Shown piece after piece: positions 23,910 through 61,263 of a DNA stretch of 64,000 bases. A program made the position numbers and the translations under genes. Origin of the DNA: a candidate division FCPU426 bacterium (GTDB lineage: Bacteria > Oederibacteriota > Muellerivitia > Muellerivitales > Muellerivitaceae); the NCBI GenBank assembly GCA_027452205.1, contig DAIDGV010000003.1, forward strand, positions 201,399 to 265,398, read 5' to 3'. The notes beneath the pieces were generated by a model. It did no database searches. It was not told the origin of the DNA and was given only the letters and a program-made list of their open reading frames with translations. The first letter of the stretch is position 1. Each line of letters starts with the position of its first letter.

Positions 23910-24067
23910 ATGTGTGAAAGCGAAAGTAGTCTAACAAAAGCCTTATTTATTTAAAAGTTTAAATTAACAAGGTTTCAAATTGGACCTATTGGGAGGTAAA
24001 TCGATTACTGTTGACCGGGCTCGAAATCATGAATAACACTGCAAAAGAACAAAACAAACCCAAACCA

Positions 24068-24538
24068 TTAGCCTTGAATGGCACTTGTCGAAGGAAGAAA
24101 TTCCACTCCTTTATCAAAATTCAAAAGAGAGATTATCCGTCCTTGTATATGGGCGACCCCAGTAATGAATCCGGCCCTGGGGTCGTTAGGATCAACTTTA
24201 GAGGGTTTTAAACAATTTACCTGAACATGCAACACTTGACGAATGGCATCCACCAACAACCCAACCATCCCGCCTTCACCCATGGCCGTGACCAAAATGG
24301 CACCTGTTCCTTTCCCCTCGTTTTTCCCTATACCAAAATGACAACGAAGGTCCAAAATTGACATCTTCTGGTTGCGCAGCTTAATCACGCCTTTCAAACA
24401 AGGGTTTTCAGCTTCAGTTTCGACGATGCCATCCGGACCCAATATCTCATGTACCCGATCGAATGCGATCCCATACTCCTCACGCCCCAAGGCAAAAGTA
24501 ATATAGGGCCCCGCCATATGATTCATTTCAGCGCTCAT
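24068..24538 (-). CDS. cheW: chemotaxis coupling protein CheW
   Basis: CheW domain: YITFALGREEYGIAFDRVHEI...GVIKLRNQKMSILDLRCHFG, 156 aa. Confidence 0.8.
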   Translation of the reverse strand: MSAEMNHMAGPYITFALGREEYGIAFDRVHEILGPDGIVETEAENPCLKGVIKLRNQKMSILDLRCHFGIGKNEGKGTGAILVTAMGEGGMVGLLVDAIRQVLHVQVNCLKPSKVDPNDPRAGFITGVAHIQGRIISLLNFDKGVEFLPSTSAIQG

Positions 24539-25023
24539 TCAGGCTCCTGCTCTATCCATAAACGAACCTCAACCGGCCAATTTTCGACAATGAAAGCACA
24601 GCAAGCGGTCGGTTCCTTATCGGGCCAATTTCGGGGTGTCGTGAACCTGGGCAGTTCCATTTTTAACAAACCCCAATTATTGCCCCAAAGATATGCCATC
24701 AAACGACCACTGAAGACATCGACAAATTCCTTGAAAACCTCGATCTCCGCGGATCTTAAGGCTTTCTTACCACCAACTTTTAACATCAATACTTTTGCGA
24801 CATCCGGAGTTGTTCGAACGTTCAAGAACCCCGTCGCATGACCCGAAAAACGAACCGAAAATTCCAATGGAAGCGGTGCCGGACCTTCTACCGGAACTCC
24901 GATATAGCGAGACGGAAGGTGCGCCCAAGATTCCATTACCGCAGTAACACCTTGCAAAATGGCATTCACTTCAATCTTGGGAAAATCACCGTATTCTTGT
25001 GGCGGTATGAAATAGGAAGGCAT
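24535..25023 (-). CDS. CheX-like protein (CheC/CheX/FliY phosphatase-family fold; active-site motif divergent)
   Basis: 162 aa with the order of secondary-structure elements expected for CheX. ELTN-like position reads EFVDVFSG. Overlaps cheW by 4 nt. Confidence 0.4.
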   Translation of the reverse strand: MPSYFIPPQEYGDFPKIEVNAILQGVTAVMESWAHLPSRYIGVPVEGPAPLPLEFSVRFSGHATGFLNVRTTPDVAKVLMLKVGGKKALRSAEIEVFKEFVDVFSGRLMAYLWGNNWGLLKMELPRFTTPRNWPDKEPTACCAFIVENWPVEVRLWIEQEPE

Positions 25024-25053
25024 CGGGCACCTGTCGGACCGGAATATGGATTA

Positions 25054-25081
25054 CCATGGTCAAACGCAAAGGCTGTGCCAA
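25054..25081 (-). promoter_or_regulatory. sigma54 (RpoN) -24/-12 promoter: TGGCAC-N5-TTGC
   Basis: Minus strand reads TGGCACAGCCTTTGCG (plus-strand gcaaaggctgtgcca at 25066-25080). Sits 43 nt upstream of the cheX-like start and directly downstream of the sigma54-dependent response-regulator gene. Confidence 0.6.
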
Positions 25082-25187
25082 AATGAAAATTGTTTATATT
25101 TAATGAATCGGTAGATTTTTATAGGTCTCGCGCAGAGAAGTGTTCAACTATTGGACAAAGAGCGTTCAATAATTGGACGTTCGACTT

Positions 25188-26540
25188 TTATCCCAGTCGG
25201 TATTTTTTGATCTTGCTCAGGAGTGTCGTGCGGCTTACGCCAAGATGTTCCGCAACTTTGGTTTTGTGTCCATTAAATGCCAACAAAGCTTTTTGGATAT
25301 TCTCCTTTTCCGCTTCGTCCCGACTCATGGGTTCAACAGAGGTCTTTCCTATCCCAGTCCTGACAGGGTTCGAGCGCACCGGAGCTGAGGGAAAATCTCC
25401 CGGAACTAATGCTTCAACACGGCAGGTCAAAACCGCACGTTCCATGGCATTCTTCAATTCTCTGACATTTCCTGGCCAAGCATAGTTTTTCAGGGCGGCG
25501 ATCACTTCCGTGGAAAGGGGCCGCAGTTTTTTGTTGAAGTCCTTGCAGAAATCATTGAAAAAGAACCGCGCCAAGCTTTCAATGTCTTCAGGTCGCGATT
25601 TAAGTGGGGGTAAAATGATATTCACGACATTCAGGCGGTAAAAAAGGTCCGCGCGAAAGGTGCCAGCTTCGACCGCCTGCTTCAAATCTCGATTGGTCGC
25701 CGCGATGATCCGGACATCGATCTTACTTTCTTGCAAACCTCCCAATCGGCGAATGGCTTTCTGTTCCAAAACCTTCAAAAGCTTCGTTTGTGCTGAAAGA
25801 GGCATCTCCCCGATCTCGTCCAGAAACACCGTTCCTCCATTAGCGACTTCAAAAAGTCCCGGCTTAGCCCTTCGAGCGTCAGTGAAGGCTCCCGCTTCAT
25901 AGCCGAACAGTTCAGCTTCTAAAAGATTTTCTGGCATCGCGCCACAGTGCAACTCCACGAAAGGCGCCGCCGTTCGGGCCGAAAGCACATGGATCAACTT
26001 TGCCACATGCTCTTTGCCCGTCCCCGTTTCGCCAGCTATCATAACGGTTACGGATGATTGCTGAGCGACTTGCTCGATCTGTTCATAAACCTTCTGCATG
26101 GTCGGATCCGGCAGGAAGAGATAATCCTTTTGGTACATGGCCTTTTGATGGCTCTTCATCGCCTCCAGGTCCCTACGCAATCCCCTTTTTTCGTTGAGTT
26201 TGTTCAAGACGATTTCTAGCTCATCCAGATTGAGCGGTTTAGCTAAGTAGTCCTCCGCTCCCCGTTTAATGGCCTCGACCGCCACTTTGACGTCCACATT
26301 GGCCGTGATTAAGACCACCGAAGCTTCCATTTTCATCTCTTGGAATTTTCTGAAAAAGTCCAAGCCTGTTCCATCCGGTAGATGGACATCAAGCAATATC
26401 GTGTCCGGATTGAACTCATTGGCTTTTTTCAATCCCTCGGCAACTGTAGCCGCCGAATCTACTTCGTACTTCAACTCTTGAAGAAAGGACAACAACATAT
26501 CCCGAATCGGTTTTTCGTCATCAACCAATAGAACTTTCAC
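25188..26540 (-). CDS. sigma54-dependent response regulator (NtrC family: REC + AAA+ sigma54-activator + Fis-type HTH)
   Basis: MKVLLVDDE receiver domain. Walker A GETGTGKE. GAFTDA motif and ESELFGHE-like ELFGYEAGAF region. C-terminal HTH (VAEHLGVSRTTLLSKIKKY). Confidence 0.9.
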   Translation of the reverse strand: MKVLLVDDEKPIRDMLLSFLQELKYEVDSAATVAEGLKKANEFNPDTILLDVHLPDGTGLDFFRKFQEMKMEASVVLITANVDVKVAVEAIKRGAEDYLAKPLNLDELEIVLNKLNEKRGLRRDLEAMKSHQKAMYQKDYLFLPDPTMQKVYEQIEQVAQQSSVTVMIAGETGTGKEHVAKLIHVLSARTAAPFVELHCGAMPENLLEAELFGYEAGAFTDARRAKPGLFEVANGGTVFLDEIGEMPLSAQTKLLKVLEQKAIRRLGGLQESKIDVRIIAATNRDLKQAVEAGTFRADLFYRLNVVNIILPPLKSRPEDIESLARFFFNDFCKDFNKKLRPLSTEVIAALKNYAWPGNVRELKNAMERAVLTCRVEALVPGDFPSAPVRSNPVRTGIGKTSVEPMSRDEAEKENIQKALLAFNGHKTKVAEHLGVSRTTLLSKIKKYRLG

Positions 26541-26541
26541 G

Positions 26542-29280
26542 TTAATCTCCTTCCAAAACGGGTAAGGACACGATGAATTCAGTCCCTTTCGAACGCATCT
26601 TTTTCAATTCGATCTTTCCCCCATATTCCTGAGCGATACGCTGACTGACGGCCAAACCCAGGCCAGACCCTGTTTTTTTTGTGGTAAAGAAAGGCTCAAA
26701 AATCCTTTTCACATTCTCATCCGTTATCCCAGGACCATTATCCTCGACGCTAACTTTTATAAAGGTCCCTTCCCGTTTCAACGCCAACTTTATCTTGTTT
26801 CCCTCGCCCAACGCCTGATAAGCGTTCAGGATCAAATTTACGAATATTTGTTGCAAACGTCCCAATTCTGCGTTTACCTGAAAATCTTCCTTCGGGGCAT
26901 TCCAATCGACCAGGATCTTCTGATGGGAAGGCCCAAACTGAACTTGGCTCAAGCGTAGCGCACTTTCTAGTGCGGCTCTCACCGAGACCGGCCCCACGTT
27001 CAGGACGGCATCCGGCTTAGCGAAGATCAAAGTATCCCGGACCAGTTTTTCAAGCCGGTCCGATTGTTCCAAGATCGTCTCCAATTGCCCATGATCTTCT
27101 TTAGGTTTTTTTCGTTTGAGTATCTGAGCCGCCACCGAGATGGCCGCCAATGGATTGCGTATCTCGTGGGCCATGCCCGCAGACATTTCTCCAATGGTCG
27201 AGAGCCTTTCCATTCGGATCAGGCTTTCTTCGGTCTTTTTCCGCTCCGTCAGGTCGCGGGCAACAACAGCCACCATTGGTAAGCCTTCGTAATGGATAAA
27301 AAAACTGACCACTTCAGCATAGACCTGTTCTCCATCTCTGCGGATAAAGACCTTTTCTTGAGGTGGATTATAATCGCCATGGTCCTTCAATTTACCGATC
27401 CTTTCGAGGATTACCGGCAGGTCCTTTTCACGAATGAACTCATTCGGTTTGAGACCCATTAGTTCTTCTGCTTTGGAATAACCCAAAAAACGAAGCATCG
27501 AATCATTGACATAGACCATTTTAGACGGCCTATCCATCGTGTGAATGATCACGCCATCGGGTGATTTTTCGATCAAATTCCGGAAATTCCTCTCGGACTG
27601 CCTCAGCGCTTCTTCGGCTTTTTTTCGCTCCGTCAGGTCGCGAGCGACCGCCACAGTCACAGGAACTCCCTCGAAGTAGATCATGAAACTAGCCACGTCA
27701 ACATACAATATGGCGCCATCTTTTCGAATAAACCGTTTTTCCTGCGGGGGATTGTAGTCGCCTGGATTTTTTAATTGTTTGATCCGCTCATGAACCGTTG
27801 CTTTATCTTCAGGATGGACAAAAAGAGTCGGAAACCTTCCAACCAACTCCCCGGGTTCGGAATAACCAAGCAAGTTGAGCATCGCATGATTAACATAGAC
27901 TGTCTTTTCAGGGGTATGAATCAAAATCGCATCCGGGGATCTTTCGATCAAATTGCGAAAACTGTGTTCGGACTTCCGCAGGGCTTCTTCGATCTTTTTT
28001 CGCGCGGTCAAATCCCAGAAATTGGTGATCCTAAGGATCTTTCCATTCATAATCAATTCAGCCCCGGTCGCTTCGATCGGAACAATCGAGCCGTTAGGGC
28101 GGATCACATTCAACTCGATCGCCTTCCCAAATTCACCCGTTCGAAGAAGGTCCAAAACGATGTTTTTAGAGTTTTCATCCAAATAATCCGCCGCGTTTTT
28201 TCCAACCATATCTTCCGGTTTATATCCCATCAATTCGGCGCCAGCTTTGTTCACATCAACGATGACACCATTATCATGAATAACGATACCTTCTTTCGAG
28301 ACCTCAGAAAACCGTTTGAACCGTTCTTGGCTTTCAATGATGGCTTGCTCCATTTTTTTCCGCTCTGTAATATCCCAGAGACTCACCACTCGAAGCTCTC
28401 TTCCCGAAAAGTTAAAATTGGTCCCATGTGCCTCTACCGGCAACCAATCGCCATTCTTCCGTTTCACTTTGATTTCGTAAGGCTTATCGGTATATCCTTC
28501 AAGCCTGAACTTTCGAACCAATTCCAGGGACTGGGCGTCAATGAATTCGTCCGATTTTTTTCCGATAAGATCCGACCTAGAATATCCGGTCATATCCGAA
28601 AGCGCTTGATTGAAATCGATGATCGCTCCCTTGTCGTGGATCAAGATGCCTTCCCTCGTGACCTCCGCGAATCTTTCGAATCTTTCCCGGCTTTCTTTTA
28701 AAGCCTTTTCTATTTTCTTTCGTTCGGTCAAGTCCCATATCTTGACCAACCGCATGGTCTTGCCGTGCCACAAAGTATCCATCCCGTGGGTTTCAGCCGA
28801 AACCAAAGTTCCATTAGCATGCTTTAACGTGATCTCAAAGGTCTGCATCGGTATCTCGCCCGATCGGATCTTTTTGATGAACTCCGCTGACTTGTCATCC
28901 ACAAAGAAAAGACTGTCTCTCCCGACGAAGTCCCTTGTTTCAAGCCCCACCATTTCCGCAAGCGCTTGGTTCACCTCCACGATCACGCCCCTATCATGGA
29001 TCAAAAGACCTTCGCGAGTGGCGTCCGCGAATTTTTTGTACCGTTCCTGACTTTCCAGCAATTGCGCTTCTCGTCTATAAAGATGTTGCATCTTGACTCT
29101 ATAATAAATGCCGAAAACCCACCCCTCTATCGCGACCAGTGTTTCCAAAAGGTATAAATAGAGATCACGGCTGGTATGAATGTAGGAACCTAAAAGACAA
29201 ATTAGAAAAACGACACTCAGAATAATATTGAGGATCATTAAAAGATCGCGGCGAGTGATCGGCTGGATGTGTTCTTTCAT
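26542..29280 (-). CDS. membrane-anchored sensor histidine kinase with about six tandem PAS domains + HisKA + HATPase_c
   Basis: 2 N-terminal TM helices. Repeated ~120-aa units ending in TERKK.E.AL. H-box MAHEIRNPLAAI. G-boxes in ...GSGLGLAVSQRIAQEYGGKIEL. Stop is 2 nt before the response-regulator start. Confidence 0.85.
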   Translation of the reverse strand: MKEHIQPITRRDLLMILNIILSVVFLICLLGSYIHTSRDLYLYLLETLVAIEGWVFGIYYRVKMQHLYRREAQLLESQERYKKFADATREGLLIHDRGVIVEVNQALAEMVGLETRDFVGRDSLFFVDDKSAEFIKKIRSGEIPMQTFEITLKHANGTLVSAETHGMDTLWHGKTMRLVKIWDLTERKKIEKALKESRERFERFAEVTREGILIHDKGAIIDFNQALSDMTGYSRSDLIGKKSDEFIDAQSLELVRKFRLEGYTDKPYEIKVKRKNGDWLPVEAHGTNFNFSGRELRVVSLWDITERKKMEQAIIESQERFKRFSEVSKEGIVIHDNGVIVDVNKAGAELMGYKPEDMVGKNAADYLDENSKNIVLDLLRTGEFGKAIELNVIRPNGSIVPIEATGAELIMNGKILRITNFWDLTARKKIEEALRKSEHSFRNLIERSPDAILIHTPEKTVYVNHAMLNLLGYSEPGELVGRFPTLFVHPEDKATVHERIKQLKNPGDYNPPQEKRFIRKDGAILYVDVASFMIYFEGVPVTVAVARDLTERKKAEEALRQSERNFRNLIEKSPDGVIIHTMDRPSKMVYVNDSMLRFLGYSKAEELMGLKPNEFIREKDLPVILERIGKLKDHGDYNPPQEKVFIRRDGEQVYAEVVSFFIHYEGLPMVAVVARDLTERKKTEESLIRMERLSTIGEMSAGMAHEIRNPLAAISVAAQILKRKKPKEDHGQLETILEQSDRLEKLVRDTLIFAKPDAVLNVGPVSVRAALESALRLSQVQFGPSHQKILVDWNAPKEDFQVNAELGRLQQIFVNLILNAYQALGEGNKIKLALKREGTFIKVSVEDNGPGITDENVKRIFEPFFTTKKTGSGLGLAVSQRIAQEYGGKIELKKMRSKGTEFIVSLPVLEGD

Positions 29281-29375
29281 ACGATGACTAGCATATCTAA
29301 ATTGGGTCGAAATGGGTATTCAGGCATCGGCCACAAACCATTAGTTTAAAACGGTTTTGTCCCGGCCAGACATCT

Positions 29376-30680
29376 TCAATACAAGCTTCCTGGATACCGA
29401 TCGCCCAATATTCGGTAATCCTTTTGTTGGATCGCCTGGACCACCTTGTCTCTTTCAGGATAAAGCGAGTTGGTATCCTTGACCGCCAAGGCATACCCCA
29501 ACTGGAAATAGACACAAAGTACAAGAACAACCTTTGTCAAAATGCCGAGAAGTTTATTTTGGGCATACCGGACATAACATTCGGAGGAATAGATCATCAA
29601 AAGTGGAAAAAGGATGTAGTAAATATGGGCCAAGGGCTTTTTGACCGTGAACCAAAAACTGATATAAACCATCACAAAACCGAAAAGCACCAACAATTTC
29701 AAGGGCCTCCAGCTTTTATTCGTCAATCTTTTCCTGAAAAATTCAATCAAAAGAACGAATGGTTGCAGCAAACCTAATATCCATAAGATCGCGCCCGGCG
29801 CTAAAAGCCACCAATGATCCAACAAAAAGCCGACCCGTGCCTTGGTGTTGATCTCGATGAACCGAGGCATCTCAAAACAAGGTATTGAAAGGTACCTGGC
29901 AAAAATAACGAACCCGTTTTTGACGTTATCCCAATTCAATCCAGAAGCGAACCCGGCCGCCGCCCCGCCTTTTGAAAGCCCATATTGAAGATAAGTTGGG
30001 ATGATCAAAGCCGCCATTGGCAACATTCCCACCAAAACCCACAACAAACTTCCAAAACGGCGTTCCCCAAATTGATAGAACAAAGAGATCATCAACAAAG
30101 GAACGAAGTAGATATAAGAAGCGTGGAACTGCATGGCCCAGCCAACGGCAAATCCCATGAGGACATTCGCAAGGCTGATGGGTACAAGGCCTAACCGGGT
30201 CATCGGAAGGGTTTCCAAAAGTCCAACAAAGAAAAGACAAGCCGACAGTAACAAATAACACGGATTCAAGATCGAAGTGCTGTAATTCAGACACCAGGGA
30301 CTTGAGCCGATCCAGACCAAGAGCCAACCAAAGGATAACTCCCGTGAACGTCGGGCGATATACCAAGCCAACAAGACAACCCCTGCCATCGATAAAATGT
30401 TGAGCGTGATATAGGGCGCTTCCGGAATAGGCAAGAGTTTGAACGAGAGTCCGATCAACAAACCTTCAAGCGCCCCAGGGATCTGGCTGGAATAGCTCGA
30501 TTCAGCCCCCGTTAGATCCGGACCGAAATAGGGCCAAGTCTGGGTGGTGTATTGTTTTAGACCGATGAGGTAGGTCTGCTTTTGGTCGTACTCTTGCCAC
30601 TTCGCGTTAAAAAGACCGAATAGAAGGCGGAAAAGAAAAAGAGCTAGGATCAAGAAGACCCAGCTGGATTTAAAGGTCAT
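29376..30680 (-). CDS. polytopic integral membrane protein, possibly a GT-C-type glycosyltransferase (uncertain)
   Basis: About 11 predicted TM helices with large loops. ORF track starts at 30722 inside the tmRNA-derived repeat, so I take the next in-frame ATG at 30680 (MTFKSSWVFLILALF). Confidence 0.45.
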   Translation of the reverse strand: MTFKSSWVFLILALFLFRLLFGLFNAKWQEYDQKQTYLIGLKQYTTQTWPYFGPDLTGAESSYSSQIPGALEGLLIGLSFKLLPIPEAPYITLNILSMAGVVLLAWYIARRSRELSFGWLLVWIGSSPWCLNYSTSILNPCYLLLSACLFFVGLLETLPMTRLGLVPISLANVLMGFAVGWAMQFHASYIYFVPLLMISLFYQFGERRFGSLLWVLVGMLPMAALIIPTYLQYGLSKGGAAAGFASGLNWDNVKNGFVIFARYLSIPCFEMPRFIEINTKARVGFLLDHWWLLAPGAILWILGLLQPFVLLIEFFRKRLTNKSWRPLKLLVLFGFVMVYISFWFTVKKPLAHIYYILFPLLMIYSSECYVRYAQNKLLGILTKVVLVLCVYFQLGYALAVKDTNSLYPERDKVVQAIQQKDYRILGDRYPGSLY

Positions 30681-30694
30681 GACCTGTCCAAAAT

Positions 30695-30725
30695 TTGATG
30701 AAGGCGGTGGGAATCGACCCACGGA
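30695..30725. repeat. partial direct repeat of the tmRNA 3' end (T-arm/acceptor), att-scar-like
   Basis: tttgatgaaggcggtgggaatcgacccacgg here versus ttttggtggaggcggtgggaatcgaacccacgt at 30817-30850 (the genuine tmRNA 3' end). About 27/31 identical, same orientation, 124 nt apart. Confidence 0.5.
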
Positions 30726-30819: not shown

Positions 30820-31164
30820 TGGTGGAGGCGGTGGGAATCGAACCCACGTCCTGAAAATCATCCGTAATGGGCACTACGTGCGTAGCTCAAGAAAGAGTCT
30901 CACCCCCCGCTCGCTCTCGAGCGGCCGGCGGAGAGCCAGTCCCATTGTTTCTCGCCCGGCCATCGGTGGAACAACCCTGATCCGGACCAACCTATTGCTT
31001 ACGTTCCATCCCCCTAATAGGTATCAGAGGCGAAACGCTTACCGCATTAAGCGGCGAGAGCTAACTGGTTATCGGCAGTTATACCGTTTGCCATGTTTGA
31101 CGAGCGATGGCGTCCTCGACACGCACCCAAAAGTTCAGCTTCCCAGTCGAAACCGGTCGCCCCC
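30820..31164 (-). ncRNA. ssrA: tmRNA (ssrA), ~345 nt
   Basis: Minus strand reads 5'-GGGGGCGACCGGTTTCGACTGGG...GGTTCGATTCCCACCGCCTCCACCA-3'. 7-bp acceptor stem with G3:U. tRNA-Ala-like T-arm and encoded CCA. Internal ORF GCA AAC GGT ATA ACT GCC GAT AAC CAG TTA GCT CTC GCC GCT TAA gives tag ANGITADNQLALAA (resume codon inferred). Confidence 0.88.
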
Positions 31165-31200: not shown

Positions 31201-31500
31201 TTAAGGCTTTAAGCCTAATTTCTCAAGGATAGCCGGTATATCGGCCAATTCAGTGTGCTTGAGCCACAAATTATCAGGCTGGATCAAAACATTGGCACCT
31301 TCTTCACAAACGTCCAGACAACCAGACTTGACCACTCGTATCTCTTTCGCCATGCCCGCCGACTTGACCGCTTCCTTTAGTGAAGCGTGTAATTCCTTAC
31401 CGCAAAAGTCTTTCCCACATGAGACCCGGGAACCATCCAAACGTTCATTGGTACAAACAAGGACATGTTTTTTGAACTGCGGTTCCGCCTGTTCCATCAC
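31201..31500 (-). CDS. thioredoxin-like [2Fe-2S] ferredoxin
   Basis: 99 aa. Cys ligands in [20 protein letters not shown] ... GCLDVCEEG pattern typical of the NuoE/Fd4-like 2Fe-2S family. Confidence 0.65.
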
Positions 31501-31910
31501 TCTCCCATCACTTTCACGATGACCCGTTTTTTTCGCCGGCCATCGAATTCCGCGTAATAAATTTGCTGCCAGGTCCCAAAATCAAGCTTACCCTTGGTGA
31601 TCGGAACGACCACTTCATGATGGACCAAAATGCTTTTCAAATGAGAGTCGCCGTTATCCTCACCGGTTTGGTGATGTTTGTAATCCGGGTTGAAGGGCGC
31701 GAGCTTTTCAAGCCACTCGTCGATATCCTCGATCAAACCTTCTTCAGCGTCGTTCACATAGACCCCGGCGGTGATATGCATGGCCGAAACCAGTGCCATT
31801 CCCTCTTGCACGCCGCTTTTGCGCACAGCTGCTTCAACTTCATTGGTGATATTGATGTAGTCCCTATGCTTGACCGTCTCGAACCAAAGATATTCGGTTA
31901 GAACTTTCAT
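31497..31910 (-). CDS. yjbQ: YjbQ/UPF0047 family protein (secondary thiamine-phosphate synthase-like)
   Basis: 137 aa. [26 protein letters not shown]...[15 protein letters not shown] matches the UPF0047 family pattern. Overlaps the ferredoxin gene by 4 nt. Confidence 0.75.
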
Positions 31911-31928
31911 TCTTTAACTCCACATTAT

Positions 31929-32609
31929 CTATCTAAACACCGAACGTTTCTTTTGATAAACACCGCTTTTTCTTGGAGTCTTTTTTATTAATTTAAATTC
32001 CTCAAGTATGTTCAGAACATCATCAGAGTCATCTTTTCTTAACCGAGTTCCTCTAATTAAAGATTTCACGTTATCGTAATTAACAATGTCGTGATCTCGA
32101 AAATGAGCCATAACTCGCAAAGCCAACAGACGCTTCTTTTCGTGTTTGGAATCGCTATCAGGAATTTTCTTCCAAATCCTTTTAACCCAATACTCTTTAG
32201 TGAGAATATTTTGAACAAGCGCATCACCCAATCCAGCATCCACTTTATAATCATAAGACGTGTATTCCAATCGTTGCAAACCACGGATATCAGACGGCAC
32301 TTCATTAGATCTTCTCGTATTCAAAAGAATGTAATAATTTTTACCTGGTGAACTTTTCAATCCTTCGGCCAACCCCAATTCTAAAGCAACATTTGGGTTC
32401 CAATTAGAGAGATCAAAAATCGAATAATCAGCCGTGTTAATACTCGACTTCATTACCTTCAATAGATGCTTAGTTTGAACATCGGTATTTCCGTAAATAA
32501 CTTCGAAAGGTAATTCTTTAAATATTTTTCTGAATTTTTTTGCAGGAAATCTACCGCTAAAAGGATGGCCCACAAAAACTTTTGGCATTCTGGTACGAAC
32601 ACGAGCCAT
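31929..32609 (-). CDS. AT-rich gene: N-terminal TIR-like / nucleoside 2-deoxyribosyltransferase-like domain plus basic C-terminal region (function unknown)
   Basis: KVFVGHPF...FEVIYGNTD...ADYSIFDLSNWNPNVALELGLAEG resembles the flavodoxin-fold NDT/TIR-like pattern (E-hG-hA motif). C-terminal 90 aa is K/R-rich. Local GC is about 37% against about 52% for the window. Confidence 0.4.
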   Translation of the reverse strand: MARVRTRMPKVFVGHPFSGRFPAKKFRKIFKELPFEVIYGNTDVQTKHLLKVMKSSINTADYSIFDLSNWNPNVALELGLAEGLKSSPGKNYYILLNTRRSNEVPSDIRGLQRLEYTSYDYKVDAGLGDALVQNILTKEYWVKRIWKKIPDSDSKHEKKRLLALRVMAHFRDHDIVNYDNVKSLIRGTRLRKDDSDDVLNILEEFKLIKKTPRKSGVYQKKRSVFR

Positions 32610-32628
32610 ACGTTTTCCTTTGGTAAAT

Positions 32629-33036
32629 CTAAATTATCGATTCTTCATCGAATTGTTCTTCGGCATTGAGCACCCAAGAACGCATCGAGGCGAATTTACC
32701 TTTTTGAATGGACATGATGATGTAGGAAAAACCCGGCCAGGCGGCCTGACGGTCTGTCTCGGAGGCTTTATCCGGATGGTCCGGGTGCGAGTGGAAGATA
32801 CCGATGACATCCAACCCCTTTTGCCGGGCCAAAGCTTCTCCTTTGAGGTAATCCTTAGGGTCCATGTCATAGCGGGTCTCGGGCTTGAGCTTGTTCAGGT
32901 TACCGCATTCGAACACTTCCGTCACCAAACGAACATTCCCGGCCTCGCCGAACATAAGACCGCAGATCTCATGTGGGAAACCCTTTTCACCGATAGCGAT
33001 CATTTGATCCTTTGCGTTTTTTTCAAATTTAATCAC
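32629..33036 (-). CDS. JAMM/MPN+ metallopeptidase, Mec+ (CysO-cysteine peptidase)-like
   Basis: 135 aa. E..CGLMFG ... FHSHPDHPDKASETD gives the E-x(n)-HxH-x7-S-xxD JAMM motif. Overall resembles Mec+ from mycobacterial-type CysO/CysM clusters. Confidence 0.75.
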   Translation of the reverse strand: MIKFEKNAKDQMIAIGEKGFPHEICGLMFGEAGNVRLVTEVFECGNLNKLKPETRYDMDPKDYLKGEALARQKGLDVIGIFHSHPDHPDKASETDRQAAWPGFSYIIMSIQKGKFASMRSWVLNAEEQFDEESII

Positions 33037-33044
33037 ATTAGCTC

Positions 33045-34028
33045 CTAAAAGCTTCCCGTTTGTAATCTTTCACGATTGTAACGATTAGATATTTTTATCG
33101 ATCTAGGACAAAACGAGCTTTCTAAATCTAAGTTTTTAATTTTTTTAAGTCTTTCAAAATAACTAGTTGCTTGATCGGTTTTCCCGAGGTTGTTCGAAAT
33201 TTCCCAACAATTGGCAATTGCATCAAAATCATTAGGGCTTTTTTTCAGATAGTCATCAAAGCCTTTTAACGACTGTAATCTAATTTTTTCAATTTCTTCT
33301 TTCTTGTCCGTCGAGAATTGAGAATCATACAAGTCTAAACACTTAACAAAGTCATCTTTAACCTCTTCGAATCGCTCCCCGTTCCATTTACAAACCACTT
33401 CACGAAAAATTTCCGTTGAGTTTCCTGCTGCGCCTACAAAAGCACCTCGGTAACTGATTAGAATCGGTTTCCCGCTTCTCTCCTCAACCGAACTCACACC
33501 ACCATATCCACTTGCCTCAAAAACACTTGAAAATTTCGATCCATCGTATTTAAAAACATTTACCTTTGTACTGTTGGCGCCAACCAGTGAATAAAAAATG
33601 AGCTGTTTTTTTCCAGCATCAATTAAATCGAACAATTCCATGTTCTGGAAACCTTCCCCCAGCGTCTCTACTTGTACTAGTTTCCATTTTTTGTCGGATA
33701 GCTTGTAATAACAAAAACCATCAAATATCAGCAATCCCGATTTGCTGTAAGCATTAATTAAAACGATAAGATCAGAATCCGGTCCCGAATAACTAAAAAC
33801 TCCACTAGATACAACTTTATATTCGTCAACCTGGTTGCCATCATCCGACTTTTCTCCAAGATATGGCTCCAGTTTGAGTGCGCCTGCCATCACATTAAAT
33901 GTCCGTCCATTTTTTAAGACAACAGGCAAATCGATTGTTTCCTTAGGGAAGCCCGGGCCGACGCAAAGAAAAAGGAACAACATTAAATAAAAAATTCTTC
34001 GTTGATAAAAACCAGTCTCAACCTTCAT
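33045..34028 (-). CDS. AT-rich hypothetical secreted protein / lipoprotein
   Basis: Signal with Cys (LMLFLFLCVGPGFP). No recognisable catalytic motif. Start overlaps the cysteine synthase stop by 4 nt; ends 8 nt before the JAMM start. Confidence 0.45.
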   Translation of the reverse strand: MKVETGFYQRRIFYLMLFLFLCVGPGFPKETIDLPVVLKNGRTFNVMAGALKLEPYLGEKSDDGNQVDEYKVVSSGVFSYSGPDSDLIVLINAYSKSGLLIFDGFCYYKLSDKKWKLVQVETLGEGFQNMELFDLIDAGKKQLIFYSLVGANSTKVNVFKYDGSKFSSVFEASGYGGVSSVEERSGKPILISYRGAFVGAAGNSTEIFREVVCKWNGERFEEVKDDFVKCLDLYDSQFSTDKKEEIEKIRLQSLKGFDDYLKKSPNDFDAIANCWEISNNLGKTDQATSYFERLKKIKNLDLESSFCPRSIKISNRYNRERLQTGSF

Positions 34029-34975
34029 TCCCAGACCCTTGTCGAAAGATATTTGTCCCCCGAATCCGGGAAGACGGTCACGATGCAGCCTTGTTTGATT
34101 TCTCTAGCTAAACGCGAGCAAGAGGCCATAGCACCACCGCTAGAAAGGCCCACCAAAAGACCTTCTTCCCGGGCCAAGCGCTTGACCATTTCATAAGACT
34201 CTTCGGTATCCATCGGGATCTTCCGGTCATAAACTTTTGGATCGTAAATACCCGGTACTATGGAAGAGGCCATGTGTTTAAGACCTTCCAAACCATGGAA
34301 AGGCTCGGCGGGTTCCAAAGCGACGATCTGTACCGACGGTTTCAATTCTTTGATCCGACGTCCAGTGCCCATCAAGGTACCACTGGTACCGATACCCGCA
34401 GCGAAATGGGTGATCCTGTCTCCCATATATTCCATGATCTCCTCGGCGGTGGTAAGACTATGTGCCTTGGGGTTTTCGGGATTGTTGTACTGGTCCGGTA
34501 CAAAATAGCGGTTGGGGTCTTTTTTATATAGTTCGCGGGCCAGCAGAATGGCTCCATCAGAACCGTCCATCTCGCTGGAATAGTGCACTTCGGCGTTATA
34601 GGATTTAAGGATACGTTTGCGTTCCTCGCTGCAATTGGCCGGAATGGCCAAAACCACTTTATAGCCCAAGGCCGCGCCGATCATGGCCAGGGCGATGCCC
34701 GTGTTACCCGAAGTCGCGTCCAAGATGCACTTGTCCTTGGTCAACTTGCCCGACTTGATGCCTTCTTGGATCATCCGCAAGGCCGGGCGGTCCTTGACCG
34801 AACCGCCGGGGTTGAACGATTCCATCTTGGCATAGATCTCCACCCCAGGAACATTATGCAAATGAACCTGTATAAGTGGCGTATGACCGACCAATTCGGT
34901 CACCGATTCATAGATGCGGGGTGGGTTTTGAAAAGCAGTCGCCAAAAGAGCGCTCCAAAAAGAAAAGGCCTTCAA
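34025..34975 (-). CDS. PLP-dependent cysteine synthase, CysK/CysM family
   Basis: PLP-lysine motif SVKDRPALRMI. TSGNTGIALA. GIGTSGTLMG glycine loop. 316 aa. Confidence 0.85.
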   Translation of the reverse strand: MKAFSFWSALLATAFQNPPRIYESVTELVGHTPLIQVHLHNVPGVEIYAKMESFNPGGSVKDRPALRMIQEGIKSGKLTKDKCILDATSGNTGIALAMIGAALGYKVVLAIPANCSEERKRILKSYNAEVHYSSEMDGSDGAILLARELYKKDPNRYFVPDQYNNPENPKAHSLTTAEEIMEYMGDRITHFAAGIGTSGTLMGTGRRIKELKPSVQIVALEPAEPFHGLEGLKHMASSIVPGIYDPKVYDRKIPMDTEESYEMVKRLAREEGLLVGLSSGGAMASCSRLAREIKQGCIVTVFPDSGDKYLSTRVWE

Positions 34976-35002
34976 GCCAAAGCTTGAAGGCCTTTTTCGG
35001 CA

Positions 35003-36887
<1,885 letters not shown>

Positions 36888-50954: not shown

Positions 50955-51775
50955 GAACGCCCCTTGGTGCTCTTTTTCTTCAGCAAGACCACATCGCCCG
51001 AAAGCACTTTTCGGGAAAGCCCGTCCTTGTCCGTTACCAACAAAAAACCATGCTCATCGATATCCTTCACTTGTCCCTCAAAGGACCCAGCCCCGTTCTC
51101 GACCAGAACCTTCTGGCCCAAGGTTACGGATCTTTTTCGCCATTCTTTCAGGACCCGGGCGAACTTACCCTCATCCCACCAAGTGCAGGTCTTTTCCAAG
51201 TTTTTCATCAGTTCTCGAAGGAACTCCACCCGGTCCACCTTTTTTCCCGAGGCCCGGTAAAAACTGGTCGCCAAAGCCCGTATCTCCGTCGGAAAGTCTT
51301 GGATGGATTGGTTCAGGTTGATGCCGATCCCTAGGATGACCGAAGACCTATTATCCCGCCGGGGACCCATTTCCGTCAAAATACCGCACAGCTTTTTGCC
51401 CTGGAGCTGGATGTCATTCGGCCATTTGATACCAGGCTGGAGCCCATAGCTTTCCAGGGTCAGGGCCACCCCCACCGCCGCCGCTAAAGTGATACCCGGT
51501 ATCTTGTCAGGCCTCGCTTTAGGATAAAGGATCAAGGAAAAGGCCAGAGCCTTTCCGGGAGAGGTGGTCCATCGCCGCCCCTGTCGGCCACGGCCCTTGG
51601 TTTGGGATTCGGCCAGGACCAGGGTTCCTGACGGCGTTCCCTTTCGGATCAGGTCCCCGGCTATATCGTTCGTCGAGGTCACTTCAGAAAAGGAATAGAA
51701 AGCCCGGCCAAAGCGGTGGCTGCGCAACCCCTTGGCGAAAAGCTCGACCGAAATGGGTGCGGTGCTTACTTTCAA
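50951..51775 (-). CDS. birA: biotin--[acetyl-CoA-carboxylase] ligase
   Basis: BPL catalytic core (QTKGRGRQGRRW, KWPNDI) plus C-terminal SH3-like domain. No N-terminal HTH. Confidence 0.85.
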   Translation of the reverse strand: MKVSTAPISVELFAKGLRSHRFGRAFYSFSEVTSTNDIAGDLIRKGTPSGTLVLAESQTKGRGRQGRRWTTSPGKALAFSLILYPKARPDKIPGITLAAAVGVALTLESYGLQPGIKWPNDIQLQGKKLCGILTEMGPRRDNRSSVILGIGINLNQSIQDFPTEIRALATSFYRASGKKVDRVEFLRELMKNLEKTCTWWDEGKFARVLKEWRKRSVTLGQKVLVENGAGSFEGQVKDIDEHGFLLVTDKDGLSRKVLSGDVVLLKKKSTKGRS

Positions 51776-52614
51776 AGCGGATAGAACTCGATGGAAAAAT
51801 CGATCGAAGGGGCTGAGTGGGTCAAGGCGCCGGAGGAAAAACGGTCCACTTTGAGCGAGGAATATTTGCCGATGTTGGAAAGGGTCAATCCACCCGAAGT
51901 TTCAACCTGCATCTTGCCTTTAACAAGTTTGAGGATACGAGCGAAATCCTTGGGTGAAGCATTATCGACCAAGATGATGTCCGCTCCCGCTCTCAAGGCC
52001 TCGACCGCCTGGTCATAGGTTTCCACCTCGACCTCGATGAATTCTTGGGTGCCATATTTCAGCCGGGCCGCCGAAACCGTCCCGAACACCCCGCCGCCCA
52101 GGCGCAAATGATTGTCCTTAATGAGCACATGACCGGACAAGTTGTAACGGTGATTGGTTCCCCCGCCAACGCGGACCGCGTAACGTTCGAGGGGCCGCAA
52201 AAGCGGGGTGGTCTTGCGGGTATCGTAAAGTTTGCCCTTGGGAAGGACTTTGGCGAATTGGTTCGTTAAAGTGGCAACGCCTGATAAACGACTGAGCAGG
52301 TTGAGCGAAACCCGTTCACCGGATAAAAGGGCTTGAGCAGGCCCTTCGAGCAGAGCCACTTTCATTCCCTTGCGGACCTTGGCCCCTTCTTTTTGTAACA
52401 GCTTTACTTTTACACGCTTGTCCAAAAGCCCATAGATTTCTTTCACCAAAGGCAGACCCGCTAAAACACCTTCGGCCTTGGCCAACACTTCCCCCCGGGC
52501 CCGTGCAGAGGAAGAAATGACCGCTTTCGATGTGCGATCATTCCAAACCCCATCCTCTTTCAGGGCTTCACGCAGGAAAGAGCGAGTCAACTTCCAATCA
52601 AAGTTTTCTTTCAA
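51772..52614 (-). CDS. nadC: nicotinate-nucleotide diphosphorylase (quinolinate phosphoribosyltransferase)
   Basis: 280 aa with QAPRT motifs (ALKEDGVWNDRT N-terminus, GGGTNHRYNLSGHVLIKDNH). TTG start per ORF track. Confidence 0.9.
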   Translation of the reverse strand: MKENFDWKLTRSFLREALKEDGVWNDRTSKAVISSSARARGEVLAKAEGVLAGLPLVKEIYGLLDKRVKVKLLQKEGAKVRKGMKVALLEGPAQALLSGERVSLNLLSRLSGVATLTNQFAKVLPKGKLYDTRKTTPLLRPLERYAVRVGGGTNHRYNLSGHVLIKDNHLRLGGGVFGTVSAARLKYGTQEFIEVEVETYDQAVEALRAGADIILVDNASPKDFARILKLVKGKMQVETSGGLTLSNIGKYSSLKVDRFSSGALTHSAPSIDFSIEFYPL

Positions 52615-52651: not shown

Positions 52652-53500
52652 CTAACCCACCATATATCTTTCCACTTTACTCGGTGCGGCGTTCATCAGG
52701 TAAACGGTGTCGTTTTGGCAGCCGATATATACAGAAGTTCCATCGTCACTGAGGGCTGGTTTGCCGATGGTCGGGCTATAAACACGGCTGGTCCAAAGGG
52801 GGGTCACTGAAGAAGTGGTTGGCAAGGCCGGGAAACAATATAAAACGCCGTCATTGGAGCCAACAATGACGGCATCGGTGCTCGTTCCGTTTTGGATCAA
52901 CCCTTCCGTCGGTGAGGACAAAATGGCGTCGCTGGTCTGGTATTGCCAGATCAGGTTTCCGTTGATATCCATCGCACGGAACATACCGTCACTGGACCCA
53001 AAGTAAACCCGGCTATTCGTGCCCTCTCTTAAAACAGCGGGGCTGGAGTAAATTTCACCCTGGGTTTGGTAGCTCCAGCGTTGACTGCCATCAAAGGTAT
53101 TGAGGGCCAAAAGCTTGCCCTGGGTAGTCCCAACGAACAAAACCCCTTGATTTGTGGCACTTTCAGCGCCATTCAAGCCGGTAAAAGGCGCGTCAGGGAC
53201 CGTGTTTGAGCCCAGATCCAGCACCGCCGGAGGGGATGAATAGGTCACATTGGGCTGACCCAAGGGTGACACCCATTTTTGTTGGAAGAAAGGGTTATCG
53301 AGATGTTGGTTAAAGCCGGTGTTATCGGGGTTATAGCGGTATTGCACCCAGGAATTAGGATTCGAGGGCGTGAGCGTGGCCGTGGGCGTGTTTTGAGCAA
53401 AAGCCGGAGCCGTTGCAAAAAAAATAAAAAAACAAACAGTTATAAAAAACCGTTTATTTTCTTCCGCCTTAAAATATTGACGTCTTATATTTTTCAACAA
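52652..53500 (-). CDS. secreted PQQ-like beta-propeller repeat protein
   Basis: Signal peptide. Repeated (V/I)(Y/F).G(S/T).DG.(L/F)(Y/R)A(L/M)D motifs. Confidence 0.6.
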   Translation of the reverse strand: MLKNIRRQYFKAEENKRFFITVCFFIFFATAPAFAQNTPTATLTPSNPNSWVQYRYNPDNTGFNQHLDNPFFQQKWVSPLGQPNVTYSSPPAVLDLGSNTVPDAPFTGLNGAESATNQGVLFVGTTQGKLLALNTFDGSQRWSYQTQGEIYSSPAVLREGTNSRVYFGSSDGMFRAMDINGNLIWQYQTSDAILSSPTEGLIQNGTSTDAVIVGSNDGVLYCFPALPTTSSVTPLWTSRVYSPTIGKPALSDDGTSVYIGCQNDTVYLMNAAPSKVERYMVG

Positions 53501-53798: not shown

Positions 53799-55202
53799 CT
53801 ATCTGTTATCCGTTCCATCCCATTCCGTGTTTTGGTTATAGGGCGCATTTGGCGGTATCACAAACCGGGTTGGCTGATACTGGATAGAAGGATAAACTGT
53901 AACAACTCCCCCACTCAGTCCAAGCGTACCAGCGCCAAATTCGGTTGAACTAGGCGGTTGAAAAACAGGCGTGCCCTGATTAAAGGTTATTTGTCCACCT
54001 GTAGATGCTGCCCCACCAGCTGCTAAACCCGCAGTCCAATAATCGCCAGGAGTTGGCACACTATTCATAGAACCCGTTAGGGAGATTCCAGGCCCAAAAG
54101 CACCTGCCCCCAAATACGGTATTATCAAACCAGTGTCAGATTGAATTATTATCCCGGCTGTCACTCCAATATAATCGTTGCCAAAACTGACATTCAGATT
54201 GTTATAACCTGGTGGCACCGTAGATCCCGGCGCATTGGAAGTTGCCGCAACTGGATAACTAAGATTATTACCAGATCCATCGTTAGTAGTTGGCGTTGGT
54301 GTAGCTGTAGATGTTTGCATACCTGTTGACGTTGCGGTTGGCGGACACAATCCCAAGAAATCTATGCCGTTAATTGGATTATTGAAAACATATCCATAAA
54401 GATTCAAACCGCCTCTAATGTCCACTGAATCTTGCGTCATAAATCTGCCAGCGTTTGGGTCATACCAACGGTTGCGCATGTAAGTTAAACCAACCGAAGC
54501 CTCGTTTTCCGAACCCATTTTCCCAATAAACTGATAGTGATTGTCCCTGGTGTTTCCTCCGCTCAAGGTCGTACCAAAAGCGTCATAACGATAGCTGTCT
54601 GAAATATTCCCGCCCGCGTCCGTGACATTCGCCACGGAAGCCAACCCATCAAAGTGGAAATAACTCACCCGAGGGATGTAGTTGGTTTTGGGGGTAAATA
54701 TCTGGGACAAATTAACGGTATGAACCACGTTATTGGCCGTTTGGCCTTCGTTGCCGTCTTGATCCACCACGCTTCCCTTGCTCCACAAGTATTGATGGGT
54801 GTCTGGTTCGCCCTTGGGACCGGCTTGGGTATTACTGATCTTCATACCCGTATAGTCATAGCCATAAATAAAGTGTTGGCCGTTATACAAAGTAGCTGTC
54901 GTTAAACGGTTTTCCGTGTCATAGGTATAGGTCGTGGTTTGGCTGGTCGAAGTATCGGTCTTGGTCAGCGGGTTTCCATTGCCGTCGTAGGTGTAGCTCA
55001 CCGTACCGGCCGTCAACAACTTGTTCGCCGCGTCATAGCCATAAGTGGTCGTGATGGCCCCCACCGTCATACTGGACCGGTTACCCGCGTTGTCATAGTT
55101 ATAGCTGACCGCCTTCAAAGTGCGGTCATTCCATGCTCCGTCCTCTTTCAAGGCTTCGTATAAAAAAGGATGAGTGGACTTCCACATGATTTTTTTGGTC
55201 AT
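53799..55202 (-). CDS. RHS/YD-repeat C-terminal fragment with RHS core (DPxGL) and variable Gly/Thr/Ser-rich C-terminal domain; N-terminal 32 aa derived from nadC
   Basis: YD repeats (YTYDGNGNPLT, YTYDTENRLT, YGYDYTGM). Core NRWYDPNAGRFMTQDSV...NPINGIDFLGL. C-terminal 182 aa are low-complexity and glycine-zipper-like. First 32 aa (MTKKIMWKSTHPFLYEALKEDGAWNDRTLKAV) parallel the NadC N-terminus. Confidence 0.75.
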   Translation of the reverse strand: MTKKIMWKSTHPFLYEALKEDGAWNDRTLKAVSYNYDNAGNRSSMTVGAITTTYGYDAANKLLTAGTVSYTYDGNGNPLTKTDTSTSQTTTYTYDTENRLTTATLYNGQHFIYGYDYTGMKISNTQAGPKGEPDTHQYLWSKGSVVDQDGNEGQTANNVVHTVNLSQIFTPKTNYIPRVSYFHFDGLASVANVTDAGGNISDSYRYDAFGTTLSGGNTRDNHYQFIGKMGSENEASVGLTYMRNRWYDPNAGRFMTQDSVDIRGGLNLYGYVFNNPINGIDFLGLCPPTATSTGMQTSTATPTPTTNDGSGNNLSYPVAATSNAPGSTVPPGYNNLNVSFGNDYIGVTAGIIIQSDTGLIIPYLGAGAFGPGISLTGSMNSVPTPGDYWTAGLAAGGAASTGGQITFNQGTPVFQPPSSTEFGAGTLGLSGGVVTVYPSIQYQPTRFVIPPNAPYNQNTEWDGTDNR

Positions 55203-60264: not shown

Positions 60265-61263
60265 TTGAACTTACGGCTATCGATCTTACTGCTACTGCTC
60301 TTGCCGACGGTCGCCCTGGCCGGAGAGAGCACCAATACCCTACTCAACGTTTCATACGACCCCACCGGGGAGTTCTACCAGAAATACAACCAGGAGTTCG
60401 CCCGTTACTGGAAAGAGAAAACCCGGCAAGACGTAACCATCCATCAATCTCATGGAGGGTCTGGCAAACAAGCCCGCGCGGTGATCGAAGGGCTGGAAGC
60501 CGACGTGGTCACCCTGGCCCTCGCCAACGATATCGACGCTATTTCCCAAAAAGCGGGTCTCTTACCCACCCATTGGCAGAAGCGCCTACCGCACAATTCG
60601 TGCCCTTATACCTCTACCATTGTCTTCTTGGTCCGCCAGGGCAATCCTAAGGGCATCAAGGACTGGCCCGACCTGGCCAAACCGGGCATCGGCATCATTA
60701 CCCCCAACCCCAAGACCGGCGGGGCCGCCCGTTGGAACTTTTTGGCCGCCTGGGGGTATATGATCAAGACCACCGGTAACCCGGACGCCGCCCGGGATTT
60801 CGTGACCAAGCTTTATAAGAATGTAGTTGTCCTGGATTCAGGTTCCCGGGGCTCCACGACCACCTTCGCCCAACGGGGCATTGGCGATGTGCTGGTCACC
60901 TGGGAGAACGAGGCCTATCTGGCCCGGGACGAATTTCCAGATCAACACTTTGAGATCGTGTCTCCTTCCTTGAGCATCCTGGCCGAACCAACGGTCGCTT
61001 GGGTCGATAAGGTGACCGAAAAGCATGGCACCACCGCCCTTGCCAAAGCTTATTTGGACCATCTTTATGCTAAAGATTCCCAAGATCTCATCGCCAAATA
61101 CCATTTCAGACCCTGCAAACCCAAAGCGCTGCGTCGACACGCGTCCGAATTCGCCTCGATGGAAATGTTCAGCTTATCCGACGTTTTCGAAAGCTGGAAA
61201 AAGGCCCAAGCCACCTACTTTGCCGATGGCGGAGTTTTCGATCAGATCTACGGGACACACTGA
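60265..61263 (+). CDS. sbp: sulfate/thiosulfate ABC transporter substrate-binding protein
   Basis: Signal peptide. 332 aa with overall sulfate-binding-protein family pattern ([11 protein letters not shown]..., [15 protein letters not shown]). Confidence 0.82.

Follow-up and report, generated by a model that had tools for sequence, protein, structure and literature searches.

A cysM-JAMM gene pair carrying two recent AT-rich insertions in a candidate division FCPU426 bacterium

In a candidate division FCPU426 bacterium, a cysteine synthase gene (cysM) and the gene of a JAMM metallopeptidase stand in one gene row with two AT-rich genes, which encode proteins of 327 and 226 aa. Here, we investigated this locus within a 64,000-nt stretch of contig DAIDGV010000003.1 (GenBank assembly GCA_027452205.1, positions 201,399 to 265,398 of the forward strand), hereafter called the window. 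All positions are window coordinates, and the loci used for comparison are labelled L001, L004, L027 and so on; those from related genomes we call relatives. The locus is best explained, with good though not complete confidence, as a vertically inherited cysM-JAMM housekeeping pair joined by two unrelated horizontal passengers, and not as a four-gene system. The module at its core is of a known kind, here in a split form that is also seen in several lineages. Both AT-rich genes are recent insertions, found in this genome only.

The four open reading frames (ORFs) listed in a preliminary description of this region are all present on the minus strand, where the order of genes is eno, cysM, the 327-aa gene, JAMM, the 226-aa gene, yjbQ, a ferredoxin gene and the transfer-messenger RNA (tmRNA) gene. 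The cysM gene (34025–34945) encodes a CysK/CysM-family, pyridoxal 5'-phosphate (PLP)-dependent cysteine synthase of 306 aa. It is followed by the gene of the 327-aa protein, a secreted protein of a rare family (33045–34028), by that of a putatively Mec+-like JAMM/MPN+ (Prok-JAB, M67) metallopeptidase of 135 aa (32629–33036), and by that of the 226-aa protein, in which a TIR/NDT(DNPH1)-like domain is predicted together with a winged helix (31929–32609). The junctions are as compact as had been described: cysM and the 327-aa gene share a 4-nt ATGA overlap, and the successive gaps from there to yjbQ measure 8, 19 and 18 nt.

The two AT-rich genes stand out by composition. Their GC content and GC content at third codon positions (GC3) are 0.375 and 0.34 for the 327-aa gene and 0.36 and 0.31 for the 226-aa gene, while neighbouring genes have a GC content of 0.47–0.53 and a GC3 of 0.49–0.69. 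In 600-nt sliding windows over the full 64 kb, the mean GC content is 0.506 (standard deviation 0.041), and values under 0.40 are confined to three islands.

We found about 100 homologues of the JAMM protein, and the gene order around them shows what the locus looks like in related genomes. In L001, L004 and L011/L012, with 73–87% JAMM identity, the order is dprA-topA-argB-nrdR-DUF1015-eno-PALP-JAB-EamA-yjbQ-fdx-tmRNA, where PALP and JAB correspond to cysM and JAMM and are either overlapping or 4 nt apart. PALP and JAB are still adjacent in L009, at 65% JAMM identity. The closest relative, L027, has about 90% DNA identity to the window and the order PALP-JAB (ATGA overlap)-yjbQ-fdx-tmRNA. Beyond the tmRNA gene it shares with the window the genes of a membrane protein, a PAS kinase and a sigma-54 regulator; it has neither the 327-aa gene, nor the 226-aa gene, nor EamA. 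Across L001, L004, L009, L011, L012, L027 and L030–L034, PALP and JAB overlap or lie 0–11 nt apart, and neither extra gene occurs in any of these loci.

The borders of both insertions could be placed at nucleotide resolution. Insertion 1 is a segment of about 988 nt (33037–34024) that carries the 327-aa ORF and sits precisely between the stop of cysM and the start of JAMM; blastn homology to L011, L012, L004 and L027 stops at 34025–34027 and resumes at 33035. The cysM/JAMM junction reads GGGAATGATCAAGTTCGAG in L027, and in the window it reads GGGAATGAAGGTTGAG, then the 327-aa ORF, then TAGGAGCTAATGTGATTAAATTTGAA, with TTTTAGGAGCTAATGTGATTAAATTTGAA as another reading of the right end. The ATG that starts JAMM in the relatives is the start of the inserted 327-aa ORF in the window, and JAMM now has a GTG start with its own AGGAG Shine-Dalgarno sequence inside the end of insertion 1. 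Insertion 2 is about 720 nt long (31911–32628), carries the 226-aa ORF and separates the stop of JAMM from the start of yjbQ, with blastn breakpoints at 32641/32642 and 31910. Its site corresponds to a 12-nt JAMM-yjbQ spacer in L027 and to an EamA transporter gene in more distant relatives. A search of the borders gave no convincing direct or inverted repeats. The 5' end of JAMM may have been duplicated over a short stretch (ATGA-AGGTTGAGA versus GTGATTAAATTTGAAA), which is too short to tell from chance.

The preliminary description had suggested that both AT-rich genes were laterally acquired, and this comparison of gene neighbourhoods, with breakpoints defined against at least six related genomes, bears the suggestion out. 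The insertions are recent, since the closest relative and all the other relatives have neither gene. The same description had pointed to a tmRNA hotspot nearby. It does not account for the insertions, as the conserved yjbQ and ferredoxin genes intervene before ssrA.

The cysM product matches PF00291 (E = 1e-64) and TIGR01136 (cysKM), the latter with 347.2 bits, which exceeds the cut-off of 344.15, and both the PLP-lysine motif SVKDR and the TSGNTG loop are intact. The real start of cysM is almost certainly the TTG at 34945, which has a Shine-Dalgarno sequence (GGAG) 7 nt upstream. This start agrees with the aligned starts in L001 and L027, and the longer alternative, the TTG at 34975 to which the mechanical ORF extends, is covered by a hairpin that is the likely eno terminator. 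This hairpin (34963–34996), located immediately behind the stop codon of eno, has a perfect 15-bp stem with a run of T after it and is kept in L027. It leaves no promoter space ahead of cysM, so expression of cysM may need read-through or a promoter within eno; promoter-like sites occur at chance level, with 7 found and 6.2 expected. CysM is 97% identical to its L027 orthologue and 53% identical to the PALP protein of L021, a locus with a complete cysM-JAB-cysO-moeZ cluster. It scores 317 bits against that PALP protein (blastp) and 243.5 bits against the best CysK/CysM chain in the Protein Data Bank (PDB; phmmer), a comparison that is indicative only, as the programs differ.

The JAMM protein carries the complete EXnHS/THX7SXXD motif, as defined in PMC300881, in residues E23, H82, H84, S92 and D95, all conserved in the alignment of homologues. 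It belongs to PF14464 (Prok-JAB; E = 2e-22) and not to RadC, the grouping that would have spoken against the Mec+-like label first given to it. Its nearest solved structures are 2kcq, 2kks and PfJAMM1 (5lda). The protein is 96% identical to its L027 orthologue and 41% identical to its homologue in L021, and its gene is host-like in GC content and orthologous to the JAMM genes linked to cysM in other genomes. Between the window and L027, the ratio of nonsynonymous to synonymous substitution rates (dN/dS) is 0.03 for cysM and 0.028 for both JAMM and yjbQ, at dS values of 0.33–0.69. This strong purifying selection, together with the intact catalytic motifs, indicates that the cysM-JAMM pair has stayed functional. 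No E1/E2 gene or ubiquitin-like gene lies near JAMM. A Mec+-like peptidase is the best reading of this protein, and it is a reading by association: homologues at 37–48% identity are mostly found in CysO/MoeZ/PALP clusters.

These clusters were surveyed in a metagenome scan with the JAMM alignment, which gave 80 loci annotated by phmmer, including 32 distant loci (37–48% identity) that were informative on both sides. The complete order PALP-JAB-CysO-MoeZ is present in 11 of the 32 and JAB-CysO in another eight, so a CysO gene adjoins JAMM in 19. Four loci have PALP-JAB-ThiF with no CysO, four have PALP-JAB only, and five have JAB alone. The close relatives are all bare PALP-JAB. Homologues of both the synthase and the JAMM protein thus occur in complete modules, as in L021, which supports the Mec+/CysM-type pairing proposed in the preliminary description. 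The L021 cluster itself consists of PALP-JAB (4-nt overlap), a ThiS-like protein of 92 aa and a ThiF protein with a rhodanese domain. Its CysO-like carrier (L021 positions 5429–5707) ends in ...SIAGG-LC and, because two residues follow the GG, would need proteolytic trimming before activation, presumably by the adjacent JAMM.

The roles of the CysO thiocarboxylate, of CysM, of Mec+ in releasing cysteine and of MoeZR as the E1 are described in PMC3227635. Like the CysM-CysO-Mec+ system of M. tuberculosis, the locus studied here places a PLP synthase beside a JAMM protein with the full motif. It differs in having no CysO-like carrier gene within 64 kb and in its order of cysM followed by JAMM, with overlapping stop and start codons in the relatives; furthermore, among solved structures, M. 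tuberculosis CysM is not the one that the window CysM resembles most. The JAMM protein also resembles JAMM desampylases and carrier-processing JAMM proteins (HvJAMM1, PfJAMM1 and DRJAMM), whose substrates are proteins of the ThiS/MoaD type, often with genes at other loci. It shares their Prok-JAB fold and catalytic motif and matches 5lda/5ld9 and the desampylase family NF041370. However, it reaches only 84 bits against NF041370, under the NCBIfam equivalog cut-off of 130, and the locus shows no sign of protein conjugation (sampylation).

The preliminary description had found no carrier gene, and this holds throughout the 64-kb window, including for small ORFs. No plausible GG-ending carrier is encoded among ORFs of 40–140 aa with up to six residues past the GG, where the few candidates listed look spurious. 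The six-frame translations of the window and of related loci gave no phmmer match to E. coli ThiS, E. coli MoaD or M. tuberculosis CysO, nor to the genuine CysO and MoeZ of L021; the best E-values were at least 1 for the carrier queries and at least 0.25 for MoeZ. No ThiF-type protein was found among the scanned genes of the window. Carriers are likewise missing from the flanks of the close relatives, over 4–10 kb on each side where the contig allows. The carrier-less cysM-JAMM pair is therefore common to all of the clade, which reaches down to 65% identity in JAMM, and not special to this genome. A literature search found no description of such a carrier-less pair. On balance we favour, with fair but limited confidence, a carrier and an E1 that are encoded elsewhere in the genome, unlinked to the pair and possibly shared with other sulfur pathways.

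There is another way to read the missing carrier. The pair in this clade could work without any ThiS-type carrier, with CysM using sulfide or thiosulfate directly and the JAMM protein acting on another substrate, for example a TusA-type partner or a different peptide or adduct. Throughout the clade (JAMM identity of 65–100%), neither a carrier nor an E1 is linked to the pair within 4–10 kb, CysM is as similar to sulfide-using CysK/CysM enzymes as to M. tuberculosis CysM, and among the distant lineages the four with PALP-JAB and the four with PALP-JAB-ThiF have no CysO and have a TusA-like gene adjoining. We nevertheless regard this explanation as unlikely. The JAMM family is mostly linked to CysO-like carriers, the overlap-coupled cysM-JAMM arrangement is identical in complete modules, and no TusA-like ORF is present in the window or in the close relatives. 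Unlinked carriers and E1s also have precedents: MoeZR of M. tuberculosis works with CysO as well as with MoaD, so an E1 need not be linked (PMC3227635), and the Deinococcus DRJAMM acts on MoaD-MoaE (PMC8832034).

As to the TusA-like genes themselves, each of the distant PALP-JAB loci without CysO has a TusA/SirA-like gene of 78–84 aa that adjoins PALP on its upstream side or JAB on its downstream side. These genes were named by eye from the motif IDITKEICPMTFVKTKLKLE..., and the observation covers L035–L037, L040, L045, L068, L081, L083, L084 and L096. Some of these loci also have a short E1 that consists of ThiF only, and L081 has both TusA and CysO. We searched the literature and did not find a TusA-PALP-JAB(-ThiF) variant of the module described.

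The 226-aa protein belongs to a family with at least 219 homologues at about 57–79% identity, all of them about 225 aa long and all unannotated. An alignment of 40 members has 43 invariant columns, including G14-H-P-F17, D66, S68, W70, N73-V, E77-L-G79, N97, P105, D107 and Q112-R-x-E115-Y-T. The protein matches PF10137 (CAP12/Pycsar TIR) at E = 1.6e-4 and 22.1 bits, below the gathering threshold of 24.7, and the same domain matches weakly in 31 of the 40 family members (E ≤ 0.01, best 1.1e-5). There was no sequence-level match to the NDT Pfam family, and a profile of the 226-aa family run against PDB sequences gave spurious TrkA matches only.

The AlphaFold2 model of the 226-aa protein has a mean predicted local distance difference test (pLDDT) score of 83 and a predicted TM-score (pTM) of 0.84. 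It shows a five-stranded alpha/beta domain that is TIR/NDT-like at about residues 9–120, followed by a C-terminal winged helix at about residues 150–226. A Foldseek search with this model returned DNPH1, NDT, plant and bacterial TIR domains (4c6s, 7uxr) and winged helix-turn-helix domains. The best PDB fold matches are DNPH1/NDT, with a Foldseek probability of about 1.0 and target-normalised TM-scores of 0.55–0.70, and among viral proteins a CAP12/Pycsar TIR protein matches best. The glutamate E77 (motif N-V-x-x-E-L-G) is invariant in the 40 sequences and starts the helix after the third beta strand, presumably at the position where TIR and NDT enzymes carry the catalytic glutamate. We also take the G-x-P-F first strand and the D...E-L-G motif to resemble the catalytic core of NDT/DNPH1. 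The TIR/NDT-like label of the preliminary description is upheld by the fold and the conserved glutamate, while its TIR part falls short of the Pfam threshold. The most conserved motif of the family, NVALELGLAEGL, which holds the invariant E77, is also the least confidently modelled stretch (residues 72–88, pLDDT < 50). Like some TIR loops, these residues may take on order only when the protein oligomerises or binds a ligand.

Among reference genomes, the 226-aa family occurs in Omnitrophota (including Velamenicoccus archaeovorus), Acidobacteria, Lentisphaerae and Gemmatimonadaceae at 57–79% identity, which amounts to at least four phylum-level groups. Its gene lies 7–16 GC points under the flanking DNA in all eight genomes compared. 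The neighbours are heterogeneous and are often defence or toxin genes. In L025 they are a type III restriction-modification system, an SNF2 helicase, AbiEi/AbiEii, HepT/MNT and PIN; elsewhere they include SRA-HNH (L023), a DruA-domain gene with HerA (L016), Doc (L013) and NTP_transf_8 (L014). The protein had no match in plasmid, phage or IMG/VR collections and is thus not obviously plasmid- or phage-borne. A cyclase or another partner that generates a signal, as in the cyclic oligonucleotide-based antiphage signalling system (CBASS), Pycsar or Thoeris, was not found beside the 226-aa gene, either in the window or in any other context that we inspected.

Most likely, the 226-aa protein is a horizontally mobile protein of conflict or defence that works alone and carries the catalytic glutamate of an NADase-type N-glycosidase. 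It shares with CAP12/Pycsar TIR effectors and bacterial TIR NADases the fold, the invariant glutamate and the defence-island settings. Unlike the CAP12/Pycsar effectors, it has no cyclase, SAVED domain or other sensor partner and stands alone at about 225 aa with a winged helix, and that same extra domain sets it apart from NDT/DNPH1. We found no family in the literature that joins a TIR domain with a winged helix. A more specific proposal, which we put forward tentatively and rate as somewhat less than probable, is that the family is an undescribed single-gene anti-phage defence. The winged helix would sense nucleic acid, depletion of NAD+ or nucleotides would follow, and the gene would spread as a bare, ORF-sized cassette that lodges in housekeeping operons. 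Of all the genes in this locus, this TIR-like and winged-helix family is the most promising lead and a candidate for experimental work.

The 327-aa protein is far rarer. A word-indexed search of 5.8 billion proteins returned only the protein itself, and an exhaustive HMMER search of 1.84 billion cluster representatives gave nine homologues at 25–33% identity (E = 1.5e-26 to 7.5e-4), eight of 311–335 aa and one fragment of 164 aa. Their alignment shows a signal peptide, a beta-rich middle with an FG-GAP-like pattern 'DLxG....ELV...GNH', and a helical C-terminal tail; a cysteine pair kept in the homologues is missing from the window protein. Scans of the family against Pfam, PADLOC and PHROG gave no family match, and the AlphaFold2 single-sequence model is poor (pLDDT 45) and unusable. 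The preliminary description had called this protein a lipoprotein. The signal peptide is clear, but the lipobox candidate LFL-C, with Leu at position -1, is non-canonical against the consensus [LVI][ASTVI][GAS]C, and the corresponding position in homologues varies (VSC, ISC or no Cys). The gene product is a genuine but rare secreted protein, and its lipoprotein status is uncertain. Nothing ties it to sulfur transfer.

We next consider whether the four genes could be one functional unit after all, either a new JAMM-associated defence-like system, with JAB and TIR combined as in CBASS/Bil, or a sulfur-transfer system. The preliminary description had raised an uncharacterised JAMM-associated system of this sort. 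The genes are co-directional, nearly without spacing and translationally coupled, and PF10137 is named after CBASS and Pycsar effectors. The JAMM protein has matches to PADLOC defence profiles (JAB, BilC, E1-E2), which are only weak (E = 1e-4 to 0.05), and the 226-aa protein has weak matches to TIR effectors. The distribution of the genes, however, makes a four-gene unit very improbable. JAMM is inherited vertically with cysM, and L027 and at least ten other relatives keep the pair with neither insert. The 327-aa family is nearly absent elsewhere, and the 226-aa family has no JAB, E1/E2, ubiquitin-like, cyclase or PALP neighbour in about ten other contexts. The scanned genes of the window included no recognisable cyclase or E1/E2-like protein, and its gene map suggested none. 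It is scarcely credible that one of the two inserted genes encodes the missing sulfur carrier, as had also been suggested, for only a position within the operon favours it: the 327-aa protein carries a signal peptide and has ...QTGSF as its C-terminus, the 226-aa protein ends in ...RSVFR and is modelled as a flavodoxin-like alpha/beta domain with a winged helix and not as a beta-grasp fold, neither has a C-terminal GG or similarity to ThiS, MoaD or CysO, and both genes are absent from relatives that keep the pair.

The history of the locus as a housekeeping pair with passengers can be pictured in two layers. The older, vertical layer comprises the cysM-JAMM pair, yjbQ and the ferredoxin gene, and would represent a split version of the CysM/Mec+/CysO/MoeZ cysteine module. 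In the four-gene module, a ThiS-fold carrier is thiocarboxylated by an E1-like enzyme and receives the activated serine skeleton from CysM, and the JAMM peptidase frees the cysteine and also trims carriers that have residues after the GG. In this clade, the genes for the carrier and the E1 are unlinked to the pair and most probably lie elsewhere. The recent, horizontal layer consists of two independent, ORF-sized, AT-rich insertions that brought no mobility genes. Insertion 1 hit the ATGA stop/start overlap of cysM and JAMM, so that the 327-aa gene took over the old JAMM start codon while JAMM translation was kept through the GTG start and the new Shine-Dalgarno sequence. Insertion 2 entered the 12-nt spacer before yjbQ and brought in a gene of a widely transferred, defence-island-associated family. 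Both passengers would ride on the transcription of the operon, with no functional tie to sulfur transfer.

Several points weigh against this picture. The window CysM gets better scores with structures of the CysK type and of E. coli CysM than with that of M. tuberculosis CysM, and its use of O-phosphoserine and a thiocarboxylate is presumed. Neither a carrier nor an E1 was found in the 64-kb window, and a carrier encoded elsewhere is an inference. No integrase, transposase, flanking repeat or attC-like site that would identify the mechanism of insertion is present at either insertion. For the 226-aa protein, the TIR assignment is under the Pfam threshold, the segment with the conserved glutamate is modelled at low confidence, and it is neighbourhood and composition that suggest the defence role.

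Taking a tidy four-gene "module" as a housekeeping pair with unrelated passengers avoids over-reading the locus. The locus also provides an unusually clean case of gene gain, in which single ORFs settled at operon-internal junctions, one of them re-using a downstream start codon, among host genes that are still under purifying selection. The CysM-Mec+-type arrangements seen here, namely the full four-gene form, the TusA-linked form and the bare pair, help to predict in which organisms cysteine synthesis depends on a carrier.

Upstream of the locus, eno occupies 35003–36394, and its likely real start is the ATG that gives 430 aa. A DUF1015 gene of 435–436 aa lies between nrdR and eno in L001, L004 and L011 and directly before PALP in L009, which has no eno at this place; it is missing from the window, where only 34 nt (36395–36428) separate the nrdR and eno ORFs. 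Downstream, yjbQ (UPF0047; 31497–31910; PF01894, E = 2e-41) is syntenic in all close relatives and overlaps by 4 nt with the gene of a thioredoxin-like 2Fe-2S ferredoxin (31201–31500; NF041613, E = 1e-10), which is likewise a conserved, syntenic operon member. The tmRNA gene (ssrA; 30820–31164, minus strand) was identified with ARAGORN, encodes the tag peptide ADNQLALAA and matches RF00023 with 168 bits. It was the sole match in an Rfam scan, which gave no riboswitch ahead of cysM.

The 3' side of the tmRNA gene is a variable region at the usual side of ssrA integration. In the window, the stretch from about 24000 to 30722 holds genes for a membrane protein (448 aa), a multi-PAS histidine kinase (912 aa), a counterpart of the L027 sigma-54 response regulator (450 aa) and a CheW-like protein. 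L027 has these genes in common with the window except for CheW, where its contig ends. L001 and L004 have a Polyketide_cyc2 gene and/or a NosD-like gene directly after the tmRNA gene.

Elsewhere in the window, a gene at 60265–61263 encodes a periplasmic binding protein of the SBP_bac_11 family, which includes binders of sulfate, thiosulfate and molybdate. This is the only other possible link to sulfur, besides cysM, among the scanned genes. We also observed a further insertion inside an operon, similar in style to those at the cysM-JAMM locus. It comprises an RHS-repeat ORF (53799–55202, 467 aa) and a PQQ/BamB-like beta-propeller ORF (52652–53500), with a 28%-GC spacer between them, and both lie upstream of a nadC-like gene (51772–52614) that was named from its N-terminal sequence. 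Over its first ~35 codons, the RHS ORF repeats the 5' end of the nadC-like gene (55184–55106 versus 52596–52518, about 75% nucleotide identity). The two 5' ends read MTKKIMWKSTHPFLYEALKEDGAWNDRT and MKENFDWKLTRSFLREALKEDGVWNDRT, respectively, and here again an inserted gene borrows the start region of the host gene.

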